Part shown: positions 1 to 27,894 of the stretch, piece by piece
How the letters are laid out: every line of letters starts with the position of its first letter
How positions within the stretch are numbered: position 1 is the stretch's first letter
Assembly (NCBI GenBank): GCA_016177355.1
Contig: JACOVL010000076.1
Coordinates: forward strand, 1-37,532
From: Betaproteobacteria bacterium
GTDB lineage: Bacteria; Pseudomonadota; Gammaproteobacteria; Burkholderiales; SG8-41
Direction: 5' to 3'
Length of the DNA stretch: 37,532 bases
Translations under genes and position numbers: made by a program
Notes under the pieces: model-generated
What the model saw: the letters and a program-made list of their open reading frames with translations, nothing else
What the model was told of the DNA's origin: nothing
Databases searched by the model: none

Positions 1-76
1 GCGACAACCTGACCGCCTGAATCTTGAACTCGACCGTATAACGATGGACCTTCTTTGGCCCGATCGGTGCCGCCAT
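1..76 (-). mobile_element. IS3-family transposase OrfA, first 25 codons only (gene runs off the left edge)
   Basis: Minus-strand ATG at 76-74, preceded by GAGGAGG (reverse complement of 82-88) 5 nt upstream. Translation is MAAPIGPKKVHRYTVEFKIQAVRLS, which resembles the N-terminal HTH segment (Y-x-x-EFK-x-x-AV) of IS3/IS911-type OrfA proteins. Recognised from memory; too short to be certain. Confidence 0.55.
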
Positions 77-86
77 GGAAACCTCC

Positions 87-692
87 TCAAGCGTTAGGCC
101 GAGGTGTCCACTTTATCGGATGAGGTTCTCTTGCCCGAAAGCGGGTGGCATTAGGAGACAGGTCGTTAATGCAGACCTGCAGCTTAAGGCCAGCTGTCAA
201 AATGGCCCCGTCAAGCACGTCCTTGTATCTAAAAAAGTCATTAAAGCCGAAGTAGTAGCACTCGCGGTTGTCGTGCTCTTCGGTCATGTCATAGATGTGC
301 GTGAGGCCGTAAAGGGTTCCGCGAAACTGCATCATTTGGAGTTCGGCATCACGTCCATCGGCATGAAGCCAGATCAGCCTGAAAGAATGTGCTGAAGCTG
401 GATATGTCCGGAGCTGGTCGATTGCGTCGCCGACGATGGCTGATACTGCGTTTGTGCGATTTATCGTCTCCGACTTCGAAACCACTTCACCGCGAACGAA
501 TGCCGCGCGTTCTGCCGTGGTCCGCTCGATATTGTCTTGTCGCGATTTGATCTCGATAATATAGTGCGCATTGTCTTTAATGACGTAAAGATCGGGCGTT
601 TTGCTGTCTCTCTTTCCGGGTATCTCGGACACTTCAAACTCGTGCTCGTTCAAGAGCCGGATGATTGCCGACTTCAGCTCGCGGTCGTCCAT
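87..692 (-). CDS. hypothetical protein with an N-terminal PD-(D/E)xK nuclease-like motif
   Basis: 201-aa ORF in the low-GC island. The N-terminus reads helix (LLNEHEFEV), then TPD(34)LYVIKDNAHYIIE(47)IK(49), which fits the PD...(D/E)xK restriction-endonuclease-fold signature. The C-terminal 130 aa were not recognised. No clear SD. The stop overlaps the SD of the IS3 orfA. Confidence 0.6.
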   Translation of the reverse strand: MDDRELKSAIIRLLNEHEFEVSEIPGKRDSKTPDLYVIKDNAHYIIEIKSRQDNIERTTAERAAFVRGEVVSKSETINRTNAVSAIVGDAIDQLRTYPASAHSFRLIWLHADGRDAELQMMQFRGTLYGLTHIYDMTEEHDNRECYYFGFNDFFRYKDVLDGAILTAGLKLQVCINDLSPNATRFRAREPHPIKWTPRPNA

Positions 693-800
693 GAGTCACT
701 TAACGTGTTGTTCTGCGGCGGCCCAGAGCGACGGGTGCATTGGCACCGCGCTGGCGGCCCGTCCGCAGCAACAAAGTTAGACGTGGCCGTTGCCATTGCG

Positions 801-1517
801 TTAATGCTGCGTCTTGCTACGCATAACATCAAGTTGCTCGGAAAGCTTTTCCCGATCATAGAGCTTGTATTGCACCGTTTGGCTTGAATGTCGACAGTCA
901 AGCGAAAGCTCCTGCGGTTCAACACCCATCCATTCCACAACAGCGTTGACAGTCTCTCCAGTCCGCAGCCACGCACGCGCCGCAAGATCGACAATTTCTT
1001 CTTTGAAAGGTAGTACCCGCCAAATCCTATGAACACACGGCAATGAGTCGTCATCGGGCACAAGGAGTTCCAGAAAATCGCGATGACCAACGACCATATG
1101 CAGGTAGCGCTCCATGGCGCCATCGCTGTCTTCCATTGGATGGATTGGGAAAGTTAGTCCGGCTTTAAACCCGCGCCCTTCAGTGAGACCAATCCCGCCA
1201 TAGCTGTTGGGCACCAACATGCCCCGATGAACGACGAAATCACGCTGCTCCGATAGAAACTTCATTAGCGGGTCGGAAAGTAGGCGATCCTTTTCCTCGC
1301 GAAACCAGGTAGGGAAATTCTCTTCATTTTGTAGCCCCATCTGGATGAGTTGAGGAACCTCCTTAAGCGATTTCAAGAACGCATTCAGGTGCCAACGAAA
1401 GGGGTCTGAGTAGTGATAGAACTGCTCGAGCGTGTGAATCCAGAAATGAGACTCCCTAAATCGATCGAGTGCTGACTCGATCTTCGCGAGTGGATGCTCT
1501 GTGCCTCCTGTCTCCAT
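801..1517 (-). CDS. hypothetical protein with a HEPN-like Rx4H motif
   Basis: 238-aa ORF in the low-GC island. The N-terminal 100 aa are predicted all-helical and end in R92-D-F-V-V-H97 (coded at 1227-1244). This fits the HEPN R-[NDH]-x3-H ribonuclease motif. I recognise no other family. Confidence 0.55.
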   Translation of the reverse strand: METGGTEHPLAKIESALDRFRESHFWIHTLEQFYHYSDPFRWHLNAFLKSLKEVPQLIQMGLQNEENFPTWFREEKDRLLSDPLMKFLSEQRDFVVHRGMLVPNSYGGIGLTEGRGFKAGLTFPIHPMEDSDGAMERYLHMVVGHRDFLELLVPDDDSLPCVHRIWRVLPFKEEIVDLAARAWLRTGETVNAVVEWMGVEPQELSLDCRHSSQTVQYKLYDREKLSEQLDVMRSKTQH

Positions 1518-1604
1518 ATCCTGCCACGTCTAACTAGAAATAGGTGGCGGTTACTTGGTGAGGAAAAGTATATACCGGCAGCATGCACAGACCTCGGGCG
1601 GCGG

Positions 1605-6413: not shown

Positions 6414-7003
6414 TGTTTTCCGGGATCGTCGCGGTGGTGGGGCGGGTGTCCCGGGTGGACCCGGCGGCGGGCGGCGTGCGCCTGCGCGTGGACGCCGGCG
6501 GCCTCGACCTGGGCGATGTCGCGATCGGCGACAGCATCGCCGTGAACGGCGTGTGCCTTACCGTGGTGGCGAAATCGGCGCAGACTTTCGAGGCGGACGT
6601 GTCACGGGAGACATTGAACAGCAGCATGGGCTACACGGCGGGGAGCCGCGTCAACCTGGAGAAGGCGCTGCGCCTGGCGGACCGCCTCGGCGGCCACCTC
6701 GTGAGCGGCCACGTGGACGGCGTCGGCACGGTGAAGCATTGCAGGCCGGCCGGCGACAGCCGCCTGCTGGCGGTGGCGGCGCCGCGCGGGCTGGCGAAAT
6801 ATATCGCGCGCAAGGGCTCGATCGCGGTAAACGGCGCGAGCCTGACGGTGAACGCGGTGAAAGGAGCGGAATTCACGGTGAATCTCATCCCGCACACTCT
6901 GGCCGCCACCAATCTGGGCGACCTGCGCGCGCGCGACCCGGTCAACCTGGAAGTGGATATGCTGGCGCGTTACGTCGAGAGGTTGAAGGGGAACCGCAGA
7001 TAA
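6413..7003 (+). CDS. ribE: riboflavin synthase (alpha chain)
   Basis: MFSGIV...GDSIAVNGVCLTV...GSIAVNGASLTV shows the duplicated lumazine-binding repeats. Its ATG overlaps the ribD stop (TAATG). The last codons and the stop lie inside a decamer repeat array. Confidence 0.93.
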   Translation: MFSGIVAVVGRVSRVDPAAGGVRLRVDAGGLDLGDVAIGDSIAVNGVCLTVVAKSAQTFEADVSRETLNSSMGYTAGSRVNLEKALRLADRLGGHLVSGHVDGVGTVKHCRPAGDSRLLAVAAPRGLAKYIARKGSIAVNGASLTVNAVKGAEFTVNLIPHTLAATNLGDLRARDPVNLEVDMLARYVERLKGNRR

Positions 7004-7151
7004 ACGCAGATACACGCAGATAACATCAAGACTAGAGACAAGTGAAGTAAACAGGGCCGACAGGTATTAAGGGATTGCGGATTCAAAGGTCTTATCAGGT
7101 GGTTCAGCTTATTTTTGGTTTTTATCCGCGTTTATCTGCGTTTATCTGCGG
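6995..7151. repeat. inverted pair of 3 x 10-nt tandem arrays flanking a 96-bp AT-rich core
   Basis: Left array: cgcagataaa/cgcagataca/cgcagataac (6995-7024). Right array: tttatccgcg/tttatctgcg/tttatctgcg (7121-7150). The reverse complement of the right array matches the left at 27 of 30 positions. Confidence 0.9.
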
Positions 7152-7173
7152 CTAATATGGGTTTGAATTTGAT

Positions 7174-8316
7174 ATGAGTTCGAGACAGGAAACGGGCATC
7201 AGCCCCATTGCCGAGGTCATCGCCGAGCTGAAGGCCGGCCGGATGGTGGTGCTGGTGGACGAGGAGGACCGCGAGAACGAGGGCGATCTGCTGATGGCGG
7301 CGGAGTTCGTGACCGCGGACGCGGTCAACTTCATGGCGCGCTACGGCAGGGGGCTCGTCTGCCTCACGCTGACCGAGGAGAAGTGCCGGGCCCTCAACCT
7401 CCCGCTGATGGTCGTCAACAACCGCTCGACGCTCGGCACCAACTTCACGGTATCCATCGAGGCCGCGGCGGGCGTCACCACCGGCATTTCCGCCGCCGAC
7501 CGCGCGCGCACCGTGCAGGTCGCGATCCGGGCCGACGCGGGCCCGCGCGACCTGGTGCAGCCGGGCCACATCTTTCCGCTGATGGCGCAGGAGGGCGGCG
7601 TGCTGGTGCGCGCCGGCCACACCGAGGCCGGCTGCGATCTCGCCCGGCTCGCGGGCTGCGCGCCGGCGGCGGTGATCTGCGAGATACTCAAGGACGACGG
7701 CGAGATGGCGCGGCTGCCGGACCTCGTCGAATTCGCCGCGCAGCACAAGCTGCGGATCGGCACCATCACCGACCTCATCCATTACCGCGCGAGCAATGAA
7801 TCGCTGGTCGAACGGATGACGGAGCGCGACATCGAGACGGCGCACGGGAAATTCCGTCTCCACGTCTACAGCGACCGCATCGGGGACGCGACCCACCTCG
7901 CGCTGGTGCGCGGCAGGCCCGTTCCCGGCCAGGAGACGCTGGTGCGCGTGCACGAGCCGCTGTCGGTGATGGACCTGCTCGACGTGGAAAGCCGCAGCCA
8001 CTCCTGGAACTTCAACGATGCGCTCGCCGCGGTGAGCCGCGCCGAGCGCGGGGTGATCTTGCTGATGCACCGGGTGGAAACGGCGGCCGAACTGCTCGAG
8101 CGCGCGCGGCCGCGCGAGGGCCAGGCGGCGGCGCAGGGCATCGCGCTCCGCAACTACGGCATCGGCGCGCAGATCCTGAAGGACCTCGGCGTGAAGAAGA
8201 TGCGGCTGCTGGCGCTGCCGCGCCGCATGCCCAGCATGGCGGGCTTCGGCCTGGAAGTCACCGGCTACTTGCAGCCAGGTGGGGGAACGGGAGAGCGGGA
8301 GAGCGGGAGAGCGTGA
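7174..8316 (+). CDS. ribBA: 3,4-dihydroxy-2-butanone-4-phosphate synthase fused to a degenerate GTP cyclohydrolase II-like domain (RibBX-type RibBA)
   Basis: The N-terminal domain has typical DHBP synthase sequence (DEEDRENEGDL, GHIFPL, RAGHTEA). The C-terminal domain aligns to GCHII, but VRVHSECxTGD...CDCG is replaced by VRVHEPLSVMDLL...SHSWNF, with no zinc cysteines. The last 12 codons are encoded by an octamer array. Confidence 0.9.
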   Translation: MSSRQETGISPIAEVIAELKAGRMVVLVDEEDRENEGDLLMAAEFVTADAVNFMARYGRGLVCLTLTEEKCRALNLPLMVVNNRSTLGTNFTVSIEAAAGVTTGISAADRARTVQVAIRADAGPRDLVQPGHIFPLMAQEGGVLVRAGHTEAGCDLARLAGCAPAAVICEILKDDGEMARLPDLVEFAAQHKLRIGTITDLIHYRASNESLVERMTERDIETAHGKFRLHVYSDRIGDATHLALVRGRPVPGQETLVRVHEPLSVMDLLDVESRSHSWNFNDALAAVSRAERGVILLMHRVETAAELLERARPREGQAAAQGIALRNYGIGAQILKDLGVKKMRLLALPRRMPSMAGFGLEVTGYLQPGGGTGERESGRA

Positions 8317-11475: not shown

Positions 11476-11539
11476 TGGGGTCAGTGTAAGATTTCCGCAG
11501 TGATACAGGCCGGCCGACGGATAAGTTACACTGACCCCA
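11476..11539. repeat. 14-bp perfect inverted repeat with a 36-nt spacer
   Basis: TGGGGTCAGTGTAA (11476-11489) and TTACACTGACCCCA (11526-11539). The spacer contains the palindrome GGCCGGCC. Lies 7 nt after the pncC stop. Confidence 0.8.
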
Positions 11540-11647
11540 ATTGCGTTTCGTCCGCTATCGACATGGGCCTGCACCTAGTGCCCAGGCTAATCCCCTAATC
11601 CACGATGCCGCCGACGTGCGGGACTTCCGGTCCCGTTGACTTTGATG

Positions 11648-11663
11648 CATTACCGTGGTAATG
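11648..11663 (+). promoter_or_regulatory. palindrome upstream of vapB, candidate autoregulatory operator
   Basis: CATTACC-GT-GGTAATG is a perfect 7-bp inverted repeat ending 9 nt before the vapB ATG. AbrB/MazE-type antitoxins typically bind palindromes in their own promoters. Confidence 0.4.
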
Positions 11664-11671
11664 TGACAATC

Positions 11672-11935
11672 ATGTCGCTCGCCCAGTCCAAACTGACCGC
11701 CCAAGGCCAGATTTCCGTGCCCTCCGAAATTCGCAAGAAACTCGGGGTCGGGCCCGGATCCATCCTCGAGTGGGACGAGAAGAACGATGAGATTATTGTC
11801 CGGAAAGCCGGGCGGCACACCTCGGCGGACGTGCACGAAGCGCTGTTTTCTGACGGCGGCCCCAACCGAAAAGCATCCGCAAACGTGAAGGATGGCATCA
11901 GAAAGTACATCCGGCAGAAGCATGCACGCCGTTGA
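11672..11935 (+). CDS. vapB: AbrB/MazE/SpoVT-family antitoxin (VapB-like)
   Basis: MSLAQSKLTAQGQISVPSEIRKKLGVGPGSILEW is a looped-hinge-helix (SpoVT/AbrB) N-terminus. 87 aa. Overlaps the downstream PIN gene by 14 nt. Start could be TTG 11636. Confidence 0.8.
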   Translation: MSLAQSKLTAQGQISVPSEIRKKLGVGPGSILEWDEKNDEIIVRKAGRHTSADVHEALFSDGGPNRKASANVKDGIRKYIRQKHARR

Positions 11936-12302
11936 TACCAATCTTCTCGTGCGACTGATCGTACGTGACGACGCGGATCAGGTAAAAGCTGCGGAGGCGT
12001 TTGTCGCAAAAGGGGCGTGGGTGTCCCACCTCGTGCTGGCAGAAACGCTATGGGTTCTCGACGCGGTTTACGATCGCTCACCCGCGCAGATCGCGAATGC
12101 GATCGACCGAATGCTGAACCACAAGGAATTGACGCTCCAGGACGCGGATATCGTCACGCTGGCGCTGGTTCATTTCCGTTCCCGTCCCTCACTGGGTTTC
12201 TCCGATTGTCTCGTTTTGGAAATTGCCCGCAAAGCCGGTCATCTACCGCTCGGAACCTTCGACCGGAATCTTGCAAAACTTGACGGTACACGCCGCCTGT
12301 AG
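11922..12302 (+). CDS. vapC: PIN-domain ribonuclease toxin (VapC-like)
   Basis: MHAVDTNLLVRL (conserved first Asp), acidic residues later (LAETLWVL, GFSDCLVLEIA) and a TFD motif near the C-terminus. 126 aa. Confidence 0.85.
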   Translation: MHAVDTNLLVRLIVRDDADQVKAAEAFVAKGAWVSHLVLAETLWVLDAVYDRSPAQIANAIDRMLNHKELTLQDADIVTLALVHFRSRPSLGFSDCLVLEIARKAGHLPLGTFDRNLAKLDGTRRL

Positions 12303-12584
12303 CGCGTTCGATCTTCACTACACAACCCAAACGGTGGCCGGCTTTGGCCGTAAACCGCCCGGTTTGGCAAAGGTCAGAAACGCCTCCGAACCCGACACCC
12401 CACGGGTGTCTGTAGAAAAAGGCAATGGGGTAAGGACGTTGGCGCGCTTTGCCGGCGCGCGGGCGCGGTTTGACGGGCGGGTCGTCAACTCAACACTCGC
12501 GTCGCGCGTTTTTAGGGCATGGCGTGCTCGGAACGGGAGCGGCTGGTTTAAAATACACGGCAACGAACAACAAGGATCCCCCTC

Positions 12585-14547: not shown

Positions 14548-17165
<2,618 letters not shown>

Positions 17166-23978: not shown

Positions 23979-24908
23979 TCAGCCTGCGACCGGGGTGACC
24001 CAGTCGCGGTGCCTGTCCGATTTTCCGGTCACGCAGTCGAAGAAGGCCTGTTGCAGCTTCTCGGTGACCGGCCCGCGCCTGCCGCCGCCGATCGTGCGGT
24101 TGTCGAGCTCCCGGATCGGCGTCACTTCCGCCGCGGTCCCGGTAAAAAACGCTTCGTCCGCGCAATAGACTTCGTCGCGCGTGATGCGCTTGGCGACGAC
24201 CGGCAGGCTGAAATCCCGCGCGATGCGGATCACCGCGTCGCGCGTGATGCCTTCGAGCGCCGAAGTGAGCTCCGGCTCAAAGAGCGTGCCGTCGCGCACG
24301 ATGAAGATGTTCTCGCCCGAGCCCTCGGCGACGAAGCCGTCCACGTCGAGCAGCAGCGCCTCGTCGTAGCCGTCCTGCGTCACCTCCTGGTGCGCGAGGA
24401 TGGAATTCATGTAGGTGCCGACCGATTTCGCCCGGCACATGGTGACGTTGACGTGATGGCGGACGTACGATGAAGTCTTGACGCGGATGCCGCGCTCGAG
24501 CGCCTCCGCGCCCAGGTAAGCGCCCCACGGCCAGGCGGCGACTGCGACGTGCACGCTGACGTTTTTGGCCGAGATGCCGAGCGCTTCGGAGCCGTAGAAG
24601 GCGATGGGACGGATGTAGCACGCTTCCAGCCGGTTGGCGCGCACGACTTCCTTCTGCGCCTCGATCAGCGTCGCCTTGTCGTAGGGGATCTTCATGCCGT
24701 TGATGTGCGCGGAGCGGAACAGGCGGTCGGTGTGCTCGATCAGCCGGAAGATCGCGGTGCCGTTCGTGGTCTTGTAGGCGCGCACCCCTTCGAACACGCC
24801 CATGCCGTAGTGCAGCGTATGGGTGAGCACGTGGGTAGTGGCACTGCGCCAAGGCACGAGCTTGCCGTCGTACCAGATATGCCCGTCGCGGTCGGCCAGA
24901 GACGGCAT
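23979..24908 (-). CDS. ilvE: branched-chain-amino-acid aminotransferase
   Basis: 309 aa. IWYDGKLVPW, HYGMGVFEGVRAY, EALLLD and GENIFIV are class IV aminotransferase motifs. Confidence 0.95.
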   Translation of the reverse strand: MPSLADRDGHIWYDGKLVPWRSATTHVLTHTLHYGMGVFEGVRAYKTTNGTAIFRLIEHTDRLFRSAHINGMKIPYDKATLIEAQKEVVRANRLEACYIRPIAFYGSEALGISAKNVSVHVAVAAWPWGAYLGAEALERGIRVKTSSYVRHHVNVTMCRAKSVGTYMNSILAHQEVTQDGYDEALLLDVDGFVAEGSGENIFIVRDGTLFEPELTSALEGITRDAVIRIARDFSLPVVAKRITRDEVYCADEAFFTGTAAEVTPIRELDNRTIGGGRRGPVTEKLQQAFFDCVTGKSDRHRDWVTPVAG

Positions 24909-25046
24909 CTGCGAACCCCATTGAATAAAACGGGTATTTTAGCGCAAGTGGTGGAAAACCCGGCGGCCACTGAGTAGAATGCTGTATCCGTCCGCCAACG
25001 CCAAAAGCCGGGCTTCGCCCCGGTCGCGGCACCCCAGGGAGAATTC

Positions 25047-26357
25047 ATGGCGCGCGATCTGCGCACATGGCTGAATGAGCTAGGCCAACGCGTCATCACC
25101 GAGCAGGACAGCGAGCAGGAGAAGCTCAACAAGACGCTCGTCATCTTCGCCTGCGGCCTGATGGGGTTCGGCGCGATGGTGTGGCTCGCCATCTACCAGG
25201 CGATGGGCATCAGGTTCTCCGCCACGGTGCCGCTCGTCTACCTCGCGATCTCGGCCAGCTCGCTCGCGCACTACCTGTGGAAGCGCAACTTCGCGCTGTT
25301 CCGCACCACCCAGGTCGCCCTGTTCCTGTTCGTGCCGTTCATCATGCAGTGGAGCATCGGCAGCTACGTCAGCTCCTCGGGCGTGATGCTGTGGGCGCTG
25401 CTCGCGCCGGTGGGGGTGATGGTGTTCCAGGGCCCGCGCCAATCGCTGCCGTGGTTCATGGCGTACCTCATGATGACCGGACTCTCGGGTTTCTTCGATT
25501 ACTACCTCGGCGAAGGCACGCAGCAGGGCGTGAACATGCAGACGATCGCGGTGTTCTTCGTGCTCAATTTCGCCGCGATGTCCACCATCGTCTATCTGCT
25601 CATCAGTAATTTTGTCCGCCAGCGCGACAAGCTGCAGGAGCGCCTGGACGCGCAGAACAAGCTGCTCAGGGAAGAGCAGGCGAAGTCGGAACGGCTGCTG
25701 CTCAACATCCTGCCGGGCCCGATTGCCGAGCGTCTCAAGCAGAACCATGCCACCATCGCCGACGGCTTCGCCGACGTCACCGTGATGTTCGCCGACATCA
25801 TCGATTTCACGCGGCTGTCGGAGGAGATGCCGCCCAAGTTCATGGTGACGCTGCTCAACGAGATTTTCTCGCACTTCGACCAGCTCGCCGGGAAGCACGG
25901 GATGGAAAAAATCAAGACCATCGGCGACGCCTACATGGTGGCGGGCGGATTGATCGAACATTGCGGTGTCGACATCCCGGTGGACGGCAGGGATTACAGC
26001 GCCGCCATGGTGGACCTGGCGCTGGAAATGCGCGAATACATGGATACGTTGTCCGGCGTGAAGAAGTCGCGGTTGCAGATCCATATCGGCATCGGCACCG
26101 GGCCGGTGGTGGCCGGCGTGATCGGGATAAAGAAGTTCATCTACGACCTGTGGGGCGACACCGTCAACATCGCGAGCCGGGTCACCGCCGAGGCGGGCGC
26201 CGGCACGATCCTGGTGGACGTCATGACCTACAGGCGTTTGCGCAACAAGTACGAGTTCGAGGGGCCCCGGACCCTCAGCGTCAAAGGCAAGGGCGATATC
26301 ACCGCCTACCGCCTGGTCGGCCGCAGGCCCGAAGGCGTCGCGCCCGCCAGCGCATGA
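25047..26357 (+). CDS. membrane-anchored class III adenylate cyclase
   Basis: About 190 aa with roughly 6 TM segments, then a coiled linker, LLLNILPGPIAERLK and VTVMFADIIDFT...KIKTIGDAYMVAGGL...YDLWGDTVNIASR. The Lys (KTIGD) and Asp (YDLWG) specificity pair points to ATP. Confidence 0.85.
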   Translation: MARDLRTWLNELGQRVITEQDSEQEKLNKTLVIFACGLMGFGAMVWLAIYQAMGIRFSATVPLVYLAISASSLAHYLWKRNFALFRTTQVALFLFVPFIMQWSIGSYVSSSGVMLWALLAPVGVMVFQGPRQSLPWFMAYLMMTGLSGFFDYYLGEGTQQGVNMQTIAVFFVLNFAAMSTIVYLLISNFVRQRDKLQERLDAQNKLLREEQAKSERLLLNILPGPIAERLKQNHATIADGFADVTVMFADIIDFTRLSEEMPPKFMVTLLNEIFSHFDQLAGKHGMEKIKTIGDAYMVAGGLIEHCGVDIPVDGRDYSAAMVDLALEMREYMDTLSGVKKSRLQIHIGIGTGPVVAGVIGIKKFIYDLWGDTVNIASRVTAEAGAGTILVDVMTYRRLRNKYEFEGPRTLSVKGKGDITAYRLVGRRPEGVAPASA

Positions 26358-26400
26358 AGCTGAATTTGGACGACCAACCCGGCAGGAAAGGAGGGTAACC

Positions 26401-27894
26401 ATGTCATCGCAGCAGCGACTTCCGTTGGTCCAGGTTGAACCGGGGTCTTATCGCGTGCAGCGCCCGGCCAGCGGCGACGAGGTGATGGAGCTGGCAAAGA
26501 AGAACGACATCCAGATTGTTGATCTCAGGTTCATCGACGTGCCGGGATTGTGGCAGCACTTCTCGATCGGCTTGCCCGAGCTCAAGAAGGACCTGTTCGA
26601 GGAGGGCATCGGTTTTGATGGCTCCTCGATTCGCGGCTTCCAGGAGATCCACGAGTCCGACATGCTGCTCAAGCCGGATCCGACGACCGCCTTTAGGGAT
26701 CCGATGTGCGAGGTGCCGACGCTGGTGATGATCTGCGACGTGGCCGATCCGGTGCTCCGGCGGCCTTATTCACGCGATCCGCGATACATCGCGAAGAAGG
26801 CGGAAGCGTACCTCAGGCAGACCGGCATCGCGGATACCTGCTACTTCGGTCCGGAGCTCGAGTTCTTCATTTTCGACTCGATACGGTTCGAGCAGAACCA
26901 GCACTGCGGCTACTACTATGTCGAGTCCGCCGAGGGCGAATGGAACTCCGGCCGGGATGAGGGCGCGTTCGGCGGCGGCAACCTCGGCTACAAGCCGCGC
27001 TACAAGGAAGGCTACTTTCCGGTGCCCCCGCACGACACCCTGCAGGACATCCGCTCGCAGATCATGCTGGCGCTGATGGATGCCGGCATTCAGGTCGAGG
27101 TGCATCATCACGAGGTCGCGACCGCCGGCCAGAACGAAATCGACATGCGCTTCGCCCCGCTCACGCGCATGGCGGACAACGTCATGCTGTACAAGTACTT
27201 CTGCAAGAACATCGCGCGCAGGCACGGCAAGGTCGCGACTTTCATGCCGAAGCCGATCTTCGCCGACAACGCGAGCGGCATGCACTGCCATCAGAGCTTG
27301 TGGAAGAGCGACAAGAACCTGTTCTTCGATGCGCAGGGCTATGCGCTGACGTCCCAGATGTGCCGCTGGTACATCGGCGGGCTGCTCAGGCACGCGCCGG
27401 CGTTGATGGCGTTCTGCGCGCCCACCACCAACTCCTACAAGCGGCTGGTGCCCGGATATGAAGCGCCGGTGAACCTGGCGATGTCCCAGCGCAACCGGTC
27501 GGCGGCGGCGCGTATCCCGATGTATTCGGATTCGCCCGGCGCGAAGCGGGTGGAGTTCCGCTGTCCCGATCCTTCGGCCAACGCGTACCTCGCATTCGCC
27601 GCGATGTTGATGGCGGGGCTGGACGGCGTACAGAACAAGACCGACCCCGGCAAGCCGCTCGACAAGAACATCTATGATCTGCCGCCGGAAGAGGCCAAGG
27701 GTATCGCCCAGGTGCCGGGCTCGCTGGAAGAATCGCTGCGGGCGCTGGAGAACGATCACGAGTTCCTCAAGCGTGGCGGCGTATTCACCGACGACCTGAT
27801 CCAGACCTACCTCGAGTACAAGTGGAAGAAGGAAGTGGACCCGGTGCGGCTGCGCCCGCATCCGTGGGAGTTTTACCTCTATTTCGACATCTGA
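26401..27894 (+). CDS. glnA: glutamine synthetase, type I
   Basis: AAGGAGG lies 6 nt upstream of ATG 26401. GPELEFF, HHHEVATAGQNE, NASGMHCHQS and the adenylylation-site context KNIYDLPPEE are present. Confidence 0.96.
   Translation: MSSQQRLPLVQVEPGSYRVQRPASGDEVMELAKKNDIQIVDLRFIDVPGLWQHFSIGLPELKKDLFEEGIGFDGSSIRGFQEIHESDMLLKPDPTTAFRDPMCEVPTLVMICDVADPVLRRPYSRDPRYIAKKAEAYLRQTGIADTCYFGPELEFFIFDSIRFEQNQHCGYYYVESAEGEWNSGRDEGAFGGGNLGYKPRYKEGYFPVPPHDTLQDIRSQIMLALMDAGIQVEVHHHEVATAGQNEIDMRFAPLTRMADNVMLYKYFCKNIARRHGKVATFMPKPIFADNASGMHCHQSLWKSDKNLFFDAQGYALTSQMCRWYIGGLLRHAPALMAFCAPTTNSYKRLVPGYEAPVNLAMSQRNRSAAARIPMYSDSPGAKRVEFRCPDPSANAYLAFAAMLMAGLDGVQNKTDPGKPLDKNIYDLPPEEAKGIAQVPGSLEESLRALENDHEFLKRGGVFTDDLIQTYLEYKWKKEVDPVRLRPHPWEFYLYFDI

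Follow-up and report, generated by a model that had tools for sequence, protein, structure and literature searches.

What is the low-GC DNA at the left end of contig JACOVL010000076.1, and do the two genes that it carries work together? This contig, from a Betaproteobacteria bacterium (assembly GCA_016177355.1), was analysed over its whole length of 37,532 nucleotides (nt), which we call the window. Its first 1,604 nt are poor in guanine plus cytosine (GC) and contain two open reading frames (ORFs) on the minus strand, gene A (801-1517, 238 amino acids, aa) and gene B (87-692, 201 aa), next to the end of an insertion sequence (IS). The original prediction, made from the sequence alone, placed both ORFs exactly. 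It read A as a HEPN-like RNase and B as a PD-(D/E)xK DNase, and joined them into one two-gene defence, abortive-infection or toxin module of an unrecognised type. Our results lead to another answer. We think that the region is probably a piece of acquired low-GC DNA in which two independent single-gene conflict cargo genes lie side by side, together with the IS.

Composition and limits of the region

The GC content of nt 1-1604 is 0.53, against 0.67 in the rest of the contig (z about -5). For nt 130-1604 it is 0.525, while windows of the same size elsewhere in the contig average 0.671 +/- 0.028 and never fall below 0.607 (z = -5.3). GC at third codon positions (GC3) is 0.55 in gene A and 0.63 in gene B, compared with 0.93-0.94 in dctM, dctQ and glyA. 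Therefore nt 1-1604 are clearly foreign to their high-GC host, and the compositional contrast noticed in the original prediction is borne out. The junction with the 3' end of the host dctM gene lies at 1518-1604, where GC steps from 0.51 to 0.63-0.68 and GC3 passes from 0.55 in A to 0.94 in dctM. The dctM stop codon occupies 1605-1607 on the minus strand. The region is probably the margin of a variable stretch of low GC that was acquired horizontally and inserted downstream of the host dctQM genes. The whole window contains no tRNA gene and no Rfam match.

The window is the whole contig and it ends inside the IS, because assemblies tend to break at repeats. The dctM-A-B arrangement is found with 100% identity in two other short contigs of the same organism (L005 and L006), both of which stop at the same place.

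Lack of pairing between genes A and B

The case for a joint A-B module begins with the locus itself. A and B are co-oriented, share the same foreign composition and are 108 nt apart, and in the spacer between them (693-800) neither a terminator-like site nor a minus-strand promoter-like site was found. In addition, each of the two genes is found elsewhere in defence-type neighbourhoods. We fetched 24 genome loci encoding relatives of A and four further contexts; 21 of the A loci are independent. A tblastn search with four B-family proteins detected a B relative in none of these 21 (covered by 23 of the fetched contexts), the only matches being L005 and L006, which duplicate the window locus. 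Reciprocally, a gene of the A family (PF26900, see below) is absent from all four independent B contexts (L001, L007, L035/36 and L037/38), and an all-against-all BLAST of 277 neighbour ORFs disclosed no family common to more than two A loci. Neither the A nor the B family has any conserved partner.

Other observations point the same way. The two families differ about 100-fold in size (A has 1,221 representative clusters, B about 10 proteins), the copy of B in the window is truncated by the IS, and no model in PADLOC-DB v2, a comparison that had been proposed along with the two-gene module, matches A, B, the full-length relatives of B or the Ea47 protein of phage lambda (E<=0.01 to 1). A single system made of a HEPN-like RNase and a PD-(D/E)xK DNase is therefore highly improbable, and this part of the original prediction has to be given up. 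One point weighs against treating the genes as independent: as the contig ends in the IS, a partner gene could still lie beyond it at this locus.

Relatives of A do have tightly abutting neighbours, but these are mutually unrelated and none is conserved across loci. In a Ralstonia-type locus (L004 287-2102) an ORF of 176 aa lies 10 nt upstream of the A relative and a GGACT/AIG2-like gene overlaps it downstream. In a Roseateles locus (L008 7184-7987) an ORF of 267 aa lies 14 nt upstream. A toxin-antitoxin reading of A was also considered and rejected, no conserved small neighbour being present among ORFs of at least 60 aa.

Gene A belongs to the Ea47 N-terminal-domain family

What, then, is gene A (801-1517, minus strand)? 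The original prediction could not place its product in any family. However, precomputed annotations assign Pfam PF26900 (Phage_lambda_Ea47) to its own protein cluster and to all 120 homologues among the matches listed. When a 50-member alignment of the A family was compared by hhalign with lambda Ea47, the two aligned over 163 columns with a probability of 98.3% (E 1.7e-14), residues 18-187 of A falling on residues 8-174 of Ea47. By this profile alignment, A is the N-terminal domain of Ea47 in stand-alone form. Scans of A with the Pfam, NCBIfam, PHROGs and PADLOC model sets, of which the Pfam set did not include PF26900, returned nothing, so that the family name comes from the precomputed annotations only. 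The link to lambda needed profile methods, since a tblastn search of 50,697 phage records with A gave no match even at E 10.

The family is large, with 1,221 representative clusters at E<=1e-3, or no fewer than 1,200 when clustered at 50% identity. Relatives sharing 50-72% identity with A are scattered patchily over at least seven phyla, among Proteobacteria, Nitrospinota, Verrucomicrobia, Acidobacteria, Melainabacteria, Gemmatimonadota and Binatia. The gene in the window is intact. It covers its relatives over their full length (93-100% query coverage among the 120 matches listed), contains no frameshift or stop and keeps every residue that is invariant in the family. Its AlphaFold2 (AF2) model is of high confidence (predicted local distance difference test score, pLDDT, 92; predicted template modelling score, pTM, 0.86).

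These features bear on the possibility that the region is decaying junk, consisting of functionless remnants of an old island in which A looks conserved merely by having been inserted recently. The disruption of B, the presence of the IS, a composition strongly unadapted to the host and the recurrence of the arrangement in just two other short contigs, both 100% identical, would all fit such a history. Against it stand the full-length A with all its invariant residues, and the 1,221 clusters with conserved motifs, which show that the A family is under selection. We consider decay of the whole region to be very unlikely.

The comparison with Ea47 reveals both likeness and difference. The two proteins share the R-N/D-x3 motif discussed below, an R164-x-W166 element and motifs in helices 1 and 2, and both are accessory genes of mobile DNA beside defence-type genes. 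Ea47, in contrast, is 410 aa long, and A has no counterpart of its C-terminal half (about 235 residues). Ea47 also carries K at the position of H97 of A (R-N-T-I-E-K), and there is no BLAST-level similarity between the two. The relationship thus names the family, but it does not explain what A does: lambda ea47 is a non-essential gene for which no function is known (PMC10695390, PMC3224144).

Some members of the A family carry unrelated N- or C-terminal extensions. The protein P0195 has a C-terminal Imm33 immunity domain (residues 242-321, E 7.7e-12), while P0233, P0274 and P0194 carry N-terminal extensions of 150-195 residues or C-terminal ones of 50-120 residues that have no Pfam match. Foldseek searches with the model of A gave no significant named neighbour in the PDB or BFVD. 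The sole entry of these fold libraries that resembles the model is BFVD A0A516KPP1 (probability 1.00, E 0.011, TM 0.59 on a target of 166 residues), an unnamed viral protein that is probably another phage-borne relative of the Ea47 N-terminal domain.

A HEPN-like motif and the possible chemistry of A

The original prediction called A HEPN-like on account of the motif R92-D-F-V-V-H97 (1227-1244, minus strand), which follows the pattern R-[ND]-x3-[HK]. We counted the conservation of this motif over 70 full-length members of the family with 19-51% identity. R92 is present in 69 of the 70. The residue after it, at position 93, is N in 34 members and D in 25 (59/70), and position 97 is H in 60 and K in the remaining 10. 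A motif that is near-invariant down to 19% identity is no chance match, and to this extent the claim holds. E22, Y34, H35, R41, S105, R164 and W166 are near-invariant as well. Judging from conservation, this polar core (E22, Y34-H35, R41, R92-[ND]93, H/K97, S105, R164 and W166) resembles the active site of an enzyme. We considered reading the R, S and E residues as a RES domain or an ADP-ribosyltransferase and discarded both, as the residues come in the wrong order and Pfam gave no support.

It is tempting to propose that A works like a HEPN RNase. It would then most likely be a metal-independent RNase using R-[ND]-x3-H as HEPN enzymes do, and its own C-terminal alpha/beta half would restrain it until triggered. 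With HepT/DUF86 (type VII toxin-antitoxin systems), AbiV and ApeA it shares R-[ND]-x3-H with aliphatic residues between R and H, as well as long helices before the motif. In its lifestyle (single-gene, mobile, found in defence islands) it is like the HEPN effectors of abortive infection (Abi). Unlike HEPN toxins, however, it has an alpha/beta C-terminal half with invariant residues of its own, R164 and W166, and unlike HepT it comes without an MNT-type antitoxin or any other conserved partner.

A direct comparison was made with a HepT profile, seeded from an SO_3166 fragment and extended to a plasmid DUF86 gene. This profile is shallow (effective number of sequences, Neff, 1.75), all of the 120 matches listed being at least 75% identical. 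Viral contigs added nothing when we tried to widen it, and plasmid matches were almost all from Bacillus. Against this shallow profile, hhalign places RNxVVH of A on RNIAVH of HepT with the preceding helices collinear (P 0.016-0.025). The score of 18.8 compares with 11.4 +/- 2.2 for column shuffles, of which 2 in 150 reach it. The B family, compared with the same HepT profile as a control, gave P = 0.65.

Several results weigh against a HEPN-type RNase. The hhalign probability for A and HepT is only 2-3%, and 6 of 150 block shuffles match the score. HEPN and Abi families of Pfam gave no match to 60 members of the A family even at E<=10, an hmmsearch of the PDB with the A family was empty, and the best Foldseek match of the model in the PDB has an E value of 1.2. 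HepT structures do appear below the significance threshold (7ae9, 7ae6, 5yep, 7bxo and 6m6w), at E 3.9-7.3, with probabilities of 0.25 or less and TM scores of 0.34-0.42. The AF2 model has four N-terminal helices (11-32, 37-61, 68-80 and 83-90), but residues 91-105, which contain the motif, are modelled as coil (pLDDT about 62) followed by a beta-strand, and not as the start of a helix. The alpha/beta C-terminal half of the model is foreign to HEPN domains. Finally, K replaces H97 in 14% of the family, lambda Ea47 included. Membership of A in the HEPN family is not demonstrated. We retain a HEPN-like RNase as the leading mechanistic guess, although a tentative one that could well prove wrong.

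Some of these points can be turned into a different proposal. The protein could be no nuclease at all but a mobile-element accessory that is non-catalytic or differently catalytic, such as an immunity or anti-defence protein, a sensor or an adaptor, in which case the resemblance to HEPN would be convergent. The lack of any HEPN family detectable by profile or fold, the motif lying in lower-confidence coil and the K at position 97 would be expected under this proposal. So would the fusion of P0195 to an Imm33 immunity domain, which counts against an RNase effector, and the Tis1_ImmP gene found near A in L003 and L004. The dispensability of lambda ea47 also agrees with it, and a constitutively toxic RNase without a conserved antitoxin-like neighbour would be unusual. 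On the other hand, polar or charged residues make up almost all of the near-invariant set (E, H, R, R, N/D, H/K, S, R), which one expects in an active site and not in a binding surface, and the motif is in register with the catalytic motif of HepT, better than 98% of column shuffles. As to the missing antitoxin, standalone autoinhibited HEPN effectors without antitoxins exist, ApeA being an example (bioRxiv 10.64898/2026.01.26.701840). On balance, a non-nuclease role appears rather unlikely to us, though it deserves serious consideration.

Genes around relatives of A and in the lambda b region

Where does the A family occur? A census of 137 ORFs within 2.5 kb of A relatives recovered transposases (three DDE_3, one IS66 and one Mutator), a phage terminase and a series of defence or toxin genes: an NgoMIV-type restriction enzyme, a CBASS cyclase with its E2 protein, AbiU, AIPR, SoFic, PDC-M04A, PDC-S24, MzaE, HipA and YoeB. 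One A locus is an AlpA/primase island with AIPR. Surroundings of the defence, toxin and IS type, suspected for both genes in the original prediction, were thus found for relatives of A, and likewise for those of B (see below).

The lambda genome offers a similar picture. The ea59 and ea31 genes, which adjoin ea47 (L034 3510-5974, corresponding to lambda 24509-26973), score in PADLOC as a Septu-type PtuA/HNH pair. Ea59 matches PtuA (E 5e-184) and PDC-M01A (E 4e-201), and the HNH protein Ea31 matches PDC-M01B (E 6e-113). In consequence, the lambda b region looks like a small defence-cargo locus.

We hypothesize that gene A moves between phyla on its own, landing among transposons, toxin-antitoxin genes and anti-phage genes, and that it is probably a self-contained conflict effector. 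Extending this, the Ea47 N-terminal family (PF26900), from lambda to Nitrospinota, might represent widespread and so far unrecognised single-protein anti-phage or abortive-infection effectors with a HEPN-like R-[ND]-x3-[HK] site and a fold without a solved relative. This is a speculative extension, and we regard it as unlikely in its full form. The defence neighbours were counted with no formal background model to set them against and are unmapped to individual loci, the PADLOC models do not match either protein, and no experiment or characterised homologue ties the A or the B family to defence, all of which tells against an effector role. The neighbourhoods of A and B are an association with defence and mobile hotspots and no proof of function.

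The locus itself is of little weight, being a patch of mobile cargo with one broken gene for which the proposed two-gene system is unsupported. The A family is the lead. It is large and mobile, is present in Pfam without a known function, has an RNase-like motif that is near-invariant and no structural relative in the PDB, and it is met repeatedly amid defence and toxin genes. Lambda ea47 has been an orphan gene for 40 years, and since it can be tested directly in E. coli, it offers a cheap route to a function for the whole family. If the proposal were true, ea47 would gain a function as a prophage-borne defence gene beside the Septu-like ea59/ea31.

Gene B is an Hjc-like gene truncated by the IS

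Gene B belongs to a rare family. Among 5.8 billion protein clusters we found about 10 relatives, all of 255-261 aa except for one fragment of 136 aa. The B protein of the window aligns with them through residue 187 (...NDLSPNATRFRA), after which 14 unrelated residues and a stop follow. The relatives run about 68 residues past this break, with many positions nearly invariant. In the DNA, the junction between the IS and the flanking sequence (129/130) falls inside codon 188 of B, exactly where the protein alignment breaks off. Protein B with its 201 aa is therefore a chimera, a 3'-truncated gene fused to IS sequence. Its native part (130-692, minus strand) comprises 187 of about 255 codons, and its tail (87-129, minus strand), residues 188-201 (REPHPIKWTPRPNA) and the stop, is derived from the IS and was not in the original gene. 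As the conserved C-terminal residues, about 68 in number, are replaced by 14 that the IS encodes, the window copy of B is probably inactive.

The PD-(D/E)xK signature that had been noticed in B is supported by profile and by fold. Its segment T32-P33-D34...E47-I-K49 (546-599, minus strand) is invariant in 10 of 10 family members. In Pfam scans B matches Hjc at 22.4 bits (22.4-22.9 across scans), with a gathering score of 21.1, and its weaker matches are all PD-(D/E)xK families (TdeIII, the TnsA N-terminal domain, Mrr_cat and the bunyaviral L-protein endonuclease). Compared with the PDB, the B-family profile finds Hjc of S. solfataricus (1hh1, E 6.3e-6). In this alignment 'tPDllv' and 'IEiKS' of B fall on 'iPDIIA' and 'IEMKS' of Hjc, so that D34, E47 and K49 lie on the catalytic residues of Hjc, which we take to be D42/E55/K57 in published numbering. 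We also modelled the full-length relative P0123 with AF2 (pLDDT 81.5). Foldseek places Hjc resolvases at the top of its matches, with probabilities of 0.96-1.0 and modest E values (5e-3 to 5e-2), followed by Bax1, the R2 endonuclease, VRR_NUC, RecU, NucS and McrC. These profile and model comparisons support the assignment of B as a protein of Hjc-like PD-(D/E)xK nuclease fold.

Compared with Hjc (PF01870), the N-terminal residues of B, about 65 of them, match by profile and fold, and the spacing from D to E is 13 in both. The B family, in contrast, is bacterial, its members have about 255 aa, of which some 120 at the C-terminus form a conserved extension not found in Hjc and mostly lost in the window copy, and its setting is that of defence islands and not of recombination genes. 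The glutamate in helix 1 that belongs to the metal site of Hjc, presumably E12, aligns with a nearly invariant lysine of B, K7. A nearly invariant D3 lies one turn before it.

Contexts of full-length B relatives were also inspected. One copy (L035 4127-14516) is flanked by hsdR on one side and hsdM/hsdS on the other, within a type I restriction-modification (R-M) locus that has DUF2971, SIR2_2 and Schlafen/AlbA_2 genes in its vicinity. In two Thermoanaerobaculia metagenome-assembled genomes, full-length relatives adjoin TIR-domain genes (L007 8904-10022; L037 5862-6374), with CAP12-PCTIR_TIR downstream in one and ThsB_TIR upstream in the other. It is possible that the B nuclease family has a TIR partner, but such a partner is not conserved. 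In our reading, B in the window is the remnant of a rare Hjc-like gene which elsewhere is solitary inside defence islands, an IS3-family element having inserted itself in codon 188. This rare family, found inside type I R-M loci and beside TIR genes, constitutes a second and smaller lead.

The IS3-family element at the contig end

The original prediction had noted a transposase-like start 10 nt after the second gene. Indeed, an ATG at nt 76 (minus strand), 10 nt past the stop of B, opens MAAPIGPKKVHRYTVEFKIQAVRLS and runs off the contig. These first 25 codons of OrfA (2-76, minus strand) encode the N-terminal helix-turn-helix of a transposase, and in the contig L045 they continue as a 136-aa HTH_Tnp_1 protein (E 5e-13). 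A 40-mer from the left end of the window was used to locate the terminus of the IS, and it was found in seven metagenome contigs. In seven independent copies similarity starts abruptly at AGAACCTCATCCGATAA..., which corresponds to nt 129 of the window, and then extends inward only. Thus the element occupies 1-129 on the minus strand with its outer terminus at nt 129 and a terminal inverted repeat of 25 nt at about 104-128.

The window contains just 129 nt of the element, whose class was read on complete copies that share these terminal 129 nt. Such copies are about 1.33 kb long, have 25-nt imperfect terminal inverted repeats and 4-bp target duplications (ACAG and ACGC were seen), and encode an HTH_Tnp_1 OrfA (E 5e-13) followed by an OrfB with HTH_21 and rve domains (rve E 6e-29). 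This layout of two ORFs, together with the inverted repeats and the short target duplications, identifies an IS3-family element, and the earlier observation of a transposase start is confirmed. In one respect it departs from the family norm, since its left end begins with AG... and not with the usual TG... A blastn search of the IS end against plasmids gave no match.

Insertion sites and other low-GC segments

The insertion sites of the element resemble each other. Six of the seven independent sites (the window included; L039-L045) have CTAA[C/T] at 24-25 nt outside the left terminus, several have GGAC at 3-6 nt outside it, and short palindromes occur in the flanks. Such regularities suggest that the element prefers certain target sites, for which a palindromic repeat is one possibility. 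The CTAAT of the window (in the region 130-160) is plain coding sequence of B (S-P-N).

Milder GC dips occur elsewhere in the contig, at 7001-7500, 11501-12500, 16001-16500 and 25501-26000 (0.576-0.60, against about 0.67). Further small insertions of foreign DNA may explain them, or simply intergenic DNA or genes of low GC.

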